Source: a virus (lineage: Duplodnaviria > Heunggongvirae > Uroviricota > Caudoviricetes). From it: 39,449 bases of DNA. Made by a program: the position numbers. Of this stretch, positions 9,001-12,000 are shown piece after piece. Position 1 is the stretch's first letter. Each line of letters begins with the position of its first letter. The stretch covers positions 1 through 39,449 of the IMG/VR virus record IMGVR_UViG_2671180847_000006; one strand, written 5' to 3'.

Positions 9001-12000
9001 GTACAACAATTTCAGAAGTGAATCGTACGATTACCTGTAACCGATGCGGATTGGCTTTAGATCCGTTCGAGCTTGTTCTCGAGCGTGCGAGAAACGGTGA
9101 AAACATAGTGTCTGAGATAAAATCACTCTATGCAAAGCGGGATGCTCTTCGTGAAGCTGTGGCAAAACTTGAACGTGAAGAGAAAAACGCCAAAGCCCGG
9201 TTACGAGCAGCCAGGACAGCAATACTGTATGCGGAAAATGACCTTAAAAATATTGAGCAGGAGGTGAATCGATGACCTGGCCTGAGGCATTCACTACAGT
9301 AGGAATTGCGATGGCGGTGGCGCTGGTGGTGTATTCGATTTGCCGATGGGGATAAAAACGGTTTGCGGGAAAAGGAGAGTTAAGTAGAATTGCTGCGGGT
9401 GCTTGAGGCTATCTGCCTCAGGCATGAACACCAAAAGGCAGATAGAGAAAAGCCCCAGTTAACATTACGCGTCCTGCAAGACGCTTAACATTAATCTGAG
9501 GCCCAATCTATGTCTCACAAATGTAGGTTAGCCTCTTACGTGCCGAAAGGCAAGGAGAAGCAGGCTATGAAGCAGCAAAAGGCGATGTTAATCGCCCTGA
9601 TCGTCATCTGTTTAACCGTCATAGTGACGGCACTGGTAACGAGGAAAGACCTCTGCGAGGTACGAATCCGAACCGGCCAGACGGAGGTTGCTGTCTTCGT
9701 AGACTACGAATCTGAGAAGTAAGAGTGACCAGGCGGGAGAGTAATCTCCCGCCACCTCTGATGTGTCGGCATCCTCAACGCACCCGCGCTTAACCCGCTT
9801 CGGCGGGTTTTTTGTTTTACGTATTCTGGTTTACAATCCACAGGCCAGCCTGAACAACTGGCACCTGCTGCGCCAGCAGAGAAAACCGATGGCGCACAAT
9901 ACCAAACATCACAATTCTGATACCGACCTTGCCAGCAGGCACGGGCGGCGTTCTCATGCATTCAAATCTGACTGGTTCCAGCATGATCCATGCACTGAAG
10001 AACAGGCCGAATGGCTGATTCAGAACTACCGCAGACGTGGTTACGAGTTTCAGAAAGACCTCAGCCTCGACTTCCGACACTGGATCATCTCAGTCAGACT
10101 GCCTTACTCTGAACGCCCACCGCGTCCGTCCCGCACATTCCAGCAACGGATCTGGAGGTAACGTGCGGGTATTGCTTCGACCTGTTCCGGTACCGGAACT
10201 CGGGCTGGTGGTCCTTAAGCCTGGTCGTGAATCCATGCAGGTATTTCATAACCCTCGAGTGCTGGTGGAGCCGGAACCGAAAAGCATGCGCGGTCTGCCG
10301 TCCGGAGTCGTTCCTGCCATTCGCCAGCCGCTGGCGGAAGACAAAACATTGCTGCCGTTTTTCAGTAACGAACGGGTGATTCGTGCTGCTGGCGGCGCTG
10401 GTGCACTTTCTGACTGGCTGTTGCGTCATGTCAAATCCTGCCAGTGGCCTCATGGCGACTATCACCACAGCGAAACCGTCATACATCGTTACGGTACCGG
10501 CGCGATGGTGTTGTGCTGGCACTGCGACAACCAGCTGCGTGACCAGACTTCCGAATCACTCGGGCAACTTGCTCATCAAAACCTGTCAGCATGGATGACT
10601 GACGTCATCCGTCACGCAATGAATGGCACACAGGAGCGGGAATTATCGCTGGCTGAATTATCCTGGTGGGCGGTCTGCAATCAGGTAGCGGACGCATTAC
10701 CGGAGGCAGTATTACGTCGTTCGCTGGGATTGCGTGCGGATAAAATCCTCTCAGTGTACCGCGACAGCGACATCGTACCTGGAGAGCAGACAGCCACCAG
10801 CATACTGAAGCAGCGCACAAAAAATATTGTGCTACCGCCTCACGTCCACCAGCAACAGAGCCTGCCACAGGAAAAGACGGTGGTCAGCATTGCCGTTGAT
10901 CCGGAGTCTCCGGCTCAGTATCTCCAGCGCCAGAAACCACAACGGGAAGAGATGCCCGTATACACGCGCTGGGTAAAAACGCAGAAATGCGTGACGTGTG
11001 GCAATCAGGCAGATGATCCGCACCACATCATTGGTCATGGGCTGGGAGGGATGGGAACAAAGGCTGACGATTTGTTTGTTATTCCGCTGTGCCGCAAATG
11101 CCATAACGAACTGCATGCTGGGGTAAAAGATTTTGAAGAAAAACACGGCAGCCAGCTGTTGTTGCTGATTCGTTTTTTAATGCACGCGAAAAATTCGGGT
11201 GTCCTGAAGTGGAAAGCATGAAATGACTGAACGCATAGAATTTGTTTTGCCTTACCCGCCGACGGTAAACACCTACTGGCGACGTCGTGGCAGCACATAT
11301 TTTGTATCAAAAGCCGGTGAGCGTTATCGCCGGGATGTGGCGCTTATTGTTCGCCAGCAGCGACTGAAATTAAACCTGTCCGGAAGGCTGGCAATAAAAA
11401 TTACTGCGGAGCCACCGGATAAGCGCCGTCGTGACCTGGACAATATTCTGAAAGCACCACTGGATGCGCTGACGCATGCCGGACTTCTCATAGACGACGA
11501 GCAGTTTGATGAAATAAATATTGTGCGCGGACTGCCTGTTCCTGGTGGTTGGTTGGGGATAAAAATCACAGAACTGGAGTGCGCATGAATAACCAGTATT
11601 TACAGTTTGTTCGTGAGCAGCTCATTATCGCCACCGCCGATTTGAGTGGGGCAACAAAAGGTCAGCTTGAAGCCTGGCAGGAGAATGCCATGTTCGATAC
11701 AGGGCGTTACAGGCGTAAAAAAATCCGGTACTGCGATGAAGTGACTGGAAAAATGATCACGCGGGATAATCCACCAATCCCGGGGAAACAATCGCTGGCG
11801 AAGGGGACGTCAATTCCTCTGGTAAGTCAGGTTGAGTTTTCGACATCCTCATGGCGACGGGCTGTTCTGTCTCTTGAAGAACCTCATAAAACCTGGTTGT
11901 TGTGGTGTTACAGCGGAAATATTTGCTGGGAGTATCAGGTCACCATAACCCGCTGGGCATGGGAAGAGTTTAAGGCTCATTCTGGCAACAGGAAAATTGC

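Follow-up and report, generated by a model that had tools for sequence, protein, structure and literature searches.

We analysed a 39,449-nucleotide (nt) stretch of DNA, positions 1 to 39,449 of the IMG/VR virus record IMGVR_UViG_2671180847_000006 (Caudoviricetes), hereafter the window, and find that its locus at 9397–9815 is, with high confidence, a complete and intact type I module of toxin and antitoxin of the hok/sok kind, an allele of the hokW-sokW module of Shiga toxin (Stx)-converting lambdoid prophages. All of the cis elements are undisrupted in the window, from the –10 and the +1 through tac, ucb, the Shine-Dalgarno sequence (SD) and ATG of mok, the Sok promoter and the hok open reading frame (ORF) to the 3′ hairpin, the fold-back inhibitory element (fbi) and the terminator. 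The presence, conservation and covariation of these elements are observed directly, and the toxin is identical to one that has already been tested. The hokW-sokW type has been characterised before in Shiga-toxin prophages, and the module described here is an ordinary copy of this known system. Its elements are the following, with lengths of proteins in amino acids (aa) and MFE standing for the minimum free energy fold.

9363–9390, + strand: putative mok-hok promoter, with a weak –35 (TTGCGG, 9363–9368), a 16-nt spacer and the –10 TAGAAT (9385–9390), placed by position and conservation
9397–9815, + strand: full-length mok-hok mRNA, predicted to span about 419 nt between the +1 and the intrinsic terminator, from the Rfam start, the homology span, the fold and the terminator
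9397–9408, + strand: tac, the translational activator element, GGGUGCUUGAGG, with fbi (full-length RNA), ucb (processed RNA) and 9415–9425 (5′ hairpin) as partners in folds and alignment
9409–9445, + strand: leader hairpin CUAUCUGCC...GGCAGAUAG, a covarying helix and part of Rfam consensus helix 1
9448–9458, + strand: ucb or anti-SD box, AAAAGCCCCAG, from the MFE, covariation and the Rfam structure, with its mechanism as in plasmid R1 (PMC9841398)
9448–9518, – strand: predicted Sok RNA of about 71 nt, in which an unpaired 5′ tail (about 9 nt) leads into a long hairpin and the 3′ end is rich in U
9498–9501, + strand: mok SD, GAGG, 8 nt 5′ of the mok ATG, nearly invariant in the 36-sequence alignment
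9505–9529, + strand: predicted Sok-target hairpin with the mok start codon and the loop CUCACAA (9514–9520), Rfam consensus helix 3
9510–9722, + strand: mok reading frame, 70 aa (19 aa plus Hok), in frame with hok, from the ORF scan and conservation
9525–9553, – strand: predicted Sok promoter, –35 TTGCCT (9553–9548), 17-nt spacer and –10 TAACCT (9530–9525), from identity to sokW and conservation
9530–9535, + strand: dcb, AGCCUC, of which GCCUC (9531–9535) pairs with the mok SD region (9498–9502) in the open form of the Rfam structure, kept in 35 of 36 sequences
9567–9722, + strand: hok toxin gene, 51 aa, with the SD AAGGAG at 9552–9557, from Pfam PF01848 and identity to HokW
9700–9714, + strand: hairpin UAGA[CUACGAA]UCUG with the Tyr47 codon UAC (9705–9707) in its 7-nt loop and a predicted A-to-I site at A9706 (Tyr to Cys), from the local fold and conservation
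9732–9753, + strand: GC-rich hairpin GGCGGGAGA/UCUCCCGCC directly after the stop codon, from covariation, a protective stem by analogy with R1
9773–9785, + strand: fbi, CCUCAACGCACCC, pairing with 9397–9408 with one bulged C (9779), from the MFE, covariation and duplex energies
9792–9815, + strand: intrinsic terminator AACCCGC-UUCG-GCGGGUU followed by a U run, from the terminator scan

The product of the hok ORF matches the Pfam family PF01848 (HOK_GEF) over the full model (1–42) with 81.1 bits against a cut-off of 22 (E=4e-23), and it is identical at 51 of 51 aa to HokW of Sakai prophage 5 (Sp5, phage VT2-Sakai, Escherichia coli O157:H7). At the DNA level the hokW-sokW locus of Sp5 is 95% identical over 92% of our 451-nt query (9380–9830). 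The two loci agree over most of the leader and at both promoters, namely in the hok promoter region and in TAGGTTA/TTGCCT for Sok, as well as in the 3′ hairpin, in fbi and in a 70-aa mok that is in frame with hok, and the MokW annotated in phage VT2-Sakai has the same architecture as the mok found here. Both copies lie in an Stx-converting lambdoid prophage, 3′ of and co-oriented with Ea22-like and DUF551 genes. The features by which we assign the locus to the hokW-sokW allele group are all found in the window: the identical toxin, the DNA identity, a hokW-type leader and a lambdoid prophage with Q, stxAB, DicB/DicF and Ea22-like/DUF551 genes. The two loci differ in eight substitutions that cluster in the Sok 5′ tail and mok codons 2–4 (MSHK... 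in the window, MLNT... in Sp5), in the region after fbi, where the window carries a canonical terminator and Sp5 diverges, and in their downstream neighbours, which are DUF968-RusA-Q in the window and a YgiW/YdeI-family gene in Sp5.

An initial annotation of the window had assigned 9356–9760 to a type I toxin locus of the hok type whose leader is long and structured. The type was named correctly and is borne out by both the Pfam match and the Rfam match to RF01794; the hok-like ORF had been placed at its exact coordinates, and the in-frame, mok-like extension from 9510 does open with an ATG into the 70-aa ORF. The interval was too short at its 3′ end, as the conserved unit reaches 9785 with fbi and the terminator lies beyond it, and the hok promoter and +1, the terminator and the near-identity to the characterised hokW-sokW had been missed.

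The Sp5 allele has been studied experimentally (Takada et al. 2021, PMC8621323), and its toxin is the one encoded here. HokW is toxic when induced and is found in the inner membrane; expression of sokW from the sokW promoter itself neutralises the toxin, a mutation of the –10 abolishes the protection, and the action of sokW is partly RNase III- and Hfq-dependent. Mitomycin C treatment leads to the disappearance of sokW and the production of HokW, in a manner that depends on RecA. No growth effect was found in the lysogen, and deletion of hokW-sokW halves phage release after induction (PMC8621323).

This last result bears on the role of the module, for which the same mechanism could serve prophage maintenance by post-segregational killing, or defence by abortive infection, instead of the release of the phage's own progeny. 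In favour of such a role, the hok/sok of R1 stabilises plasmids and lowers T4 plating (as cited in PMC8621323), hok genes are about four-fold enriched in prophages, for which a defence role has been proposed (bioRxiv 10.1101/2025.08.07.668861), and the ParE/PaaA2-type type II module in the same prophage fits a set of addiction or defence cargo. However, the sole direct experiment on this allele type is the one just described, with no growth effect in the lysogen and halved release upon deletion; moreover, chromosomal hokA, hokB and hokC give no post-segregational killing and hok is not enriched beside defence systems, according to the literature. We consider a maintenance or defence role a possible but rather unlikely explanation.

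A second alternative would make the locus the remnant of a chromosomal hok that has decayed and no longer functions, as are most E. coli K-12 hok loci, which are inactivated by insertion sequences or lack the leader and sok. Many relatives are indeed truncated. The hokD of the K-12/BL21 type (H22–H24; L008, L038) matches query positions 174–439 only, so that the promoter, leader and sok are lacking there; among the other relatives, L015 lacks the fbi region and L007 the 5′ end, and chromosomal hok loci are reported to be inactive in work cited in PMC5630033 and in bioRxiv 10.1101/2025.08.07.668861. Against this, all elements from the promoter –10 to the terminator are intact in the window, the toxin is identical to the functional HokW, and the module sits in an apparently complete Stx prophage, not in a cryptic remnant. 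A decayed locus is accordingly very improbable, and the intact hokW-sokW allele remains our reading.

The nearest named relatives place this copy further. The closest named chromosomal gene is hokD (relF) of the Qin prophage of K-12, which, like the window prophage, carries DicB/DicF, and with which the coding region, the 3′ hairpin and fbi are homologous; the K-12-type hokD matches from about 9553 onwards only, without promoter, leader, mok or sok, and its toxin is identical at 46 of 51 aa, ending in FTAYEPEE where the window has FVDYESEK. The hokC/mokC locus (gef) of E. coli shows about 74% DNA identity over the whole transcript and has its mok in frame, exceeding hok by 19 codons; the locus falls into another clade, without an 18-nt hairpin insertion that the window carries. 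Several relatives have lost parts of the module: L015, of the hokC type, diverges directly after the 3′ hairpin, the 5′ end of L007 is replaced, and L008, L038 and L027 are without leader and sok. These five are natural knock-outs and provide a contrast to the intact copy in the window.

DNA of this kind is very common. The 451-nt query finds related DNA in 4725 of the 5426 complete E. coli genomes, with a median of 2 places per positive genome and a maximum of 10, where the matches are annotated as hokD or Hok/Gef family protein; hokD is the label given by PGAP to most relatives. It also matches 110 phage records, labelled MokW, gef homolog, hok/mok or host killer protein. Within the window the Rfam scan gave a single RF01794 match, and no second hok copy was found.

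The evidence for the RNA elements comes from Rfam, from folding and from two alignments. The family alignment holds 36 members from Escherichia, Shigella, Kluyvera, Citrobacter, Erwinia, Pantoea and Photorhabdus; the close-relative alignment holds 51 distinct sequences from viral contigs, and per-position entropy was taken over 42 close relatives. The scan against the hok/sok models, which the initial annotation had suggested as a check, returned RF01794 at 9397–9572 with 121.7 bits (gathering score 59; E=1.9e-27), over the full model (1–157) and on the hok-sense strand. BLAST matches to distant homologues cover 9397–9785. The 420-nt transcript 9397–9816 has an MFE of –168 kcal/mol against –126 ± 6 kcal/mol for shuffled sequences (z=–6.5), none of 100 shuffles being as stable. 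Upstream of the start of the Rfam model at G9397, the –10 TAGAAT lies 7 nt away, with a conservation of 90% or more for its T, A and final T among the 36 family members; the hok –35 TTGCGG sits in the variable flank.

The model RF01794 is named 'sok antitoxin (CssrC)'. Since it ends in the hok SD and AUG and matches on the hok-sense strand, it describes the leader of the hok mRNA and not the antisense Sok RNA, and trusting its name would put the annotation on the wrong strand. Beyond RF01794, a permissive Rfam scan of 9250–9950 yielded sub-threshold matches only: rsmX (24.8 bits against 56), CsrC on the 3′ hairpin (16.2 against 61), P9 and a nematode snoRNA. As these fall far under their gathering scores, we treat them as chance.

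In the leader, the hairpin with arms CTATCTGCC (9409–9417) and GGCAGATAG (9437–9445) is paired in 89% of cells of the 36-member alignment, with 4 pairs changed on both sides; it had been predicted a few bases off, at about 9405–9442. The next element, ucb, can pair with either of two partners, and both pairings are conserved. In the closed form, given by the MFE of the full-length RNA, GCCCCAG (9452–9458) pairs with CUGAGGC (9496–9502), which holds the mok SD GAGG, and this helix is 86% paired with 6 pairs changed on both sides. In the open form, given by the Rfam structure, tac (9397–9404) pairs with ucb (9450–9456), and these pairs are kept in 34–35 of 36 sequences. Covariation is found in the closed-form helix only. 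The same alternative pairings have been described for R1 (PMC9841398).

In the MFE the ends of the mRNA are joined by tac and fbi, which form 12 bp between 9397–9408 and 9773–9785. Across the family the column pair 63/467 reads UA in 24 members, CG in 9 and UG in 3, and is unpaired in none. The duplex reaches –17 to –26 kcal/mol in 33 of 36 relatives; in the other three, which lack it, the 5′ end has been replaced, the leader is missing or the 3′ region has been replaced. The Photorhabdus-type tac binds its own fbi with –25 kcal/mol, compared with –16 kcal/mol for those of other types.

Between the stop codon and fbi lies the GC-rich hairpin, a 9-bp stem with arms GGCGGGAGA (9732–9740) and TCTCCCGCC (9745–9753) that is 97–98% paired across the family, with compensatory changes. 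The equivalent stem of R1 is the terminal stem-loop of the 3′-processed mRNA; mutations that break it abolish the truncated mRNA, the processed RNA being lost probably through 3′-to-5′ exonucleases (PMC9841398). By this analogy the hairpin 9732–9753 would be the stem-loop that protects the processed mRNA at its 3′ end. The initial annotation had recognised the stem (as 9731–9754) and had taken it for the fold-back element. As fbi must pair with the 5′ end of the mRNA, and 9773–9785 does so, fbi is the latter segment, outside the interval first proposed. The alternative in which 9732–9753 is itself fbi and the functional unit ends at about 9760 draws on a hairpin that is real, GC-rich, conserved and directly 3′ of the stop codon, but that hairpin pairs with itself and not with the mRNA 5′ end, its R1 counterpart is the terminal stem of the processed mRNA (PMC9841398), the 12-bp complement that covaries with the 5′ end across genera is at 9773–9785, and the homology to distant relatives reaches 9785 and not 9760, so that on sequence grounds this version is already refuted and retains almost no probability. 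In the hokW-sokW allele as we read it, the transcript would then end at the intrinsic terminator, which is found in most close relatives and is replaced in Sp5.

The antisense component is predicted from the minus strand. The + strand sequence TAGGTTA at 9524–9530 is the one replaced by primers YO-421/422 in the 'pro-less' mutant of sokW (PMC8621323), and the positions of the Sok promoter are nearly invariant, with an entropy below 0.1 bit. We placed the start of Sok at the G at 9518, 7 nt past the –10, and took its length from the 71-nt complementarity reported for sokW (PMC8621323). The RNA so predicted (9518–9448) folds into a tail and a hairpin with –30.4 kcal/mol (z=–5.25). A minus-strand Sok had been expected at about 9480–9560, with no promoter named; the expectation and the strand fit and the region overlaps, and the promoter can now be set at 9553–9525 with the predicted RNA at about 9518–9448.

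The variability of the transcribed region is unevenly spread. Values at or below about 0.1 bit prevail in the Sok promoter and over most of the sequence coding for Hok, and the Sok tail with mok codons 1–5 (9506–9525, or about 9503–9525) reaches 0.7–0.8 bit per position, among the most variable transcribed stretches. The loop of the 5′ hairpin (9426–9435, 0.84 bit) is the sole stretch as variable as the Sok-target region. A variable Sok-target region may insulate co-resident copies in one genome from each other.

The mok ATG is kept in 35 of 36 family members and in 49 of 51 distinct close relatives. Its frame relative to hok differs among relatives (including loci L002–L048): it lies 57 nt before the hok ATG, in frame and giving 68–70 aa; 58 nt before it, as an overlapping ORF of 55–68 aa; or 56 nt before it, as a 19-aa ORF whose stop overlaps the hok start as ATGA. 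A frame that varies with an ATG that is kept is as expected if only the translation of mok up to the hok start counts. For R1, translation as far as the hok start is what counts for mok, whose SD is likewise a GAGG motif (PMC9841398).

The module of plasmid R1, the paradigm of hok/sok (Gerdes and co-workers), provides the second reference. R1 and the window have in common the tac/fbi end-pairing, the ucb/anti-SD pairing, a mok leader ORF whose SD is GAGG, the 3′ hairpin that is protective in R1 and a terminator that follows fbi; the cis-antisense Sok of R1, with a promoter between mok and the hok SD, has a predicted counterpart in the window. The R1 Hok protein is only about 44% identical (PMC8621323). 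The window copy differs in residing in a prophage instead of on a plasmid and in the 18-nt insertion, relative to the Rfam consensus, in its second leader hairpin. A plasmid search for a direct R1 comparison yielded nothing longer than 47-nt matches to hok loci of the IncF type, and the comparison rests on the Rfam family model and the literature. The mok of R1 is in a different frame from hok, unlike the in-frame mok of the window.

Several observations weigh against an intact and functional hokW-sokW allele. Firstly, the transcript ends, the expression of Sok, the 3′ processing and the toxicity in this strain are all inferred. Secondly, a consensus sigma-70 promoter scan of 9200–9950 on both strands called no site, including the hok and Sok promoters. 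The Sok promoter matches the consensus at 7 of 12 positions only, which is why the scan missed it; as neither promoter matches the consensus well and the –10 of Sok, TAACCT, has been validated in the Sp5 allele, we do not take the negative scan as evidence of absence. Thirdly, 8 of about 20 positions in the Sok 5′ tail and its target differ from the characterised Sp5 allele. Fourthly, the open-form pairs, tac/ucb and SD/dcb, are nearly invariant and therefore yield no covariation evidence, and in the fold of the 3′-truncated RNA (9397–9760) the MFE pairs tac with 9415–9425 instead of forming the tac/ucb stem. Such a 5′ hairpin is of the type described as metastable for R1. Thermodynamic prediction alone thus fails to give the open form, which rests on the Rfam consensus and conservation and not on the fold of the truncated RNA. 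Finally, the cut-offs of the NCBIfam models for HokA and for the Hok subfamily are not reached (53.6 against 73), so that HokA or HokD as a specific name is unsupported.

Combining these elements, we infer a mechanism by homology with R1 hok/sok and Sp5 hokW-sokW, whose steps are supported by sequence, folding and covariation and whose order (closed RNA, 3′ trimming, refolding and then either Sok/RNase III decay or mok-coupled translation) is that of the homologous systems. The weak promoter would produce a stable mRNA of about 419 nt, in which tac and fbi would lock the closed fold and ucb would sequester the mok SD, permitting neither translation nor Sok binding. Slow trimming of the 3′ end back to the protective hairpin would remove fbi, upon which tac would re-pair with ucb and expose the mok SD and the Sok-target hairpin. 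Ribosomes initiating at mok (9510) would then traverse the hok SD and start, and the 51-aa membrane toxin would be made; with mok in frame in the window allele, the same ribosomes would yield a 70-aa extended Hok. As long as it is synthesised, the short-lived Sok of about 71 nt, transcribed on the minus strand, would pair with the processed mRNA, and the duplex would be destroyed, partly via RNase III. Once Sok synthesis stops, the stable mRNA would be translated and Hok would damage the inner membrane, for hokW at prophage induction. Processing of the mRNA at its 3′ end, RNase III cleavage of the duplex and toxicity once Sok is lost have been demonstrated for R1 (PMC9841398) and in part for the Sp5 allele (PMC8621323).

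The window is an Stx-converting lambdoid prophage, and its other genes place the module in a defined context:

780–1076, – strand: DicB, in a leftward operon as in the Qin prophage of K-12
1154–1205, – strand: DicF small RNA, with a full-length Rfam match of 77 bits, again in the leftward operon as in Qin
2750–3275, – strand: type II module of a ParE-family toxin (2750–3124) and a PaaA2-type antitoxin (3030–3275), adjoining the immunity region
3711–4435, + strand: YdaS/YdaT, immunity region
11549–12274: Q antiterminator
12835–13893: DNA methylase
13934–14009 and 14111–14187: tRNA-Met and tRNA-Arg-UCU
14272–15237: stxA (Shiga toxin A, RIP family)
15250–15513: stxB (SLT_beta)

After YdaS/YdaT the gene order is replication genes, DUF1627, Ea22-like, DUF551, hok, DUF968, RusA and Q. 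The hok gene is co-oriented with the rightward early operon, which starts near 3700 and runs to Q at 11549. A crude count of ORF strands in 52 distinct IMG/VR viral-contig contexts (among L133–L212) shows the 2.5-kb flanks to be mostly co-oriented with hok, upstream in 44 and downstream in 46 of them, and the co-orientation agrees in the four annotated contexts that we inspected. Across these contexts hok usually lies in sense inside a phage operon, so oriented that it converges with the promoter of its Sok.

For the switching-off of Sok at prophage induction, the co-orientation with the early operon suggests an explanation based on transcription. Together with the hypervariable Sok-recognition region, the CUACGAA loop and the occurrence of mok in all three frames, it leads to hypotheses on the induction trigger. 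Tentatively, prophage induction might trigger the module directly via transcription, with the hypervariable Sok tail (up to 10 co-resident copies) and a predicted editing of Tyr47 in the CUACGAA loop as tuning layers; we hold this to be a conceivable but doubtful proposal. After repressor cleavage, antiterminated early transcription would cross the locus against the convergent Sok promoter and could turn Sok off by transcriptional interference, and read-through sense RNA with ends other than tac and fbi could escape the fold-back repression. If true, such read-through would account for the unexplained RecA-dependent loss of sokW and appearance of HokW (PMC8621323).

The hok coding region holds a further candidate layer of control. 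A UACG motif for TadA (9705–9708) lies within the 7-nt loop CUACGAA, at the conserved second-cysteine position, and the hairpin 9700–9714 has a frequency of 76% in the local fold ensemble. All 36 of 36 family members have TACGAA without change, and the flanking stem covaries (CG in 19 and UA in 16; GC in 22 and AU in 9); the exact 7-nt loop is closed (pair 372/380) only by the window/HokW-type allele and one other of the 36. The CUACGAA loop is the same as the anticodon loop of E. coli tRNA-Arg(ACG). Editing from Tyr to Cys has been reported at the equivalent Tyr46 of hokC, hokD and hokE (PMC5630033, PMC12214031). By analogy, TadA-type editing of Tyr47 probably adds Tyr-to-Cys recoding to the regulation of the window copy.

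As hok/sok is a textbook type I toxin-antitoxin system and an allele with the identical toxin has already been characterised experimentally, the locus adds little new knowledge in itself. Its practical value lies in the correct annotation of an Stx-converting prophage: the automatic annotation of related records gives the Hok ORF only, often as hokD, and omits mok, Sok, the promoters, tac/fbi and the probable TadA site. On induction, the module may further influence when Stx phage is released and in what yield, which is relevant to the spread of Shiga toxin. The genomes closest to the window are porcine and food isolates with Stx2e annotations.

Near-identical hok DNA also occurs under other host names (among L014, L022 and H26), on contigs that are very short and carry the names Acinetobacter idrijaensis (275 bp) and Xanthomonas pisi (431 bp), and at 96% identity in a record named Actinobacillus phage vB_Apl-pPE4. 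These copies are probably contamination or mislabelled hosts and not cross-order transfer. Directly 5′ of the hok promoter, a hydrophobic ORF of 27 aa (MTWPEAFTTVGIAMAVALVVYSICRWG) at 9272–9355 gave no family match. Its ATG overlaps the stop of a 131-aa ORF (8880–9275) as ATGA, and a primer of the hokW study begins at this ATG.

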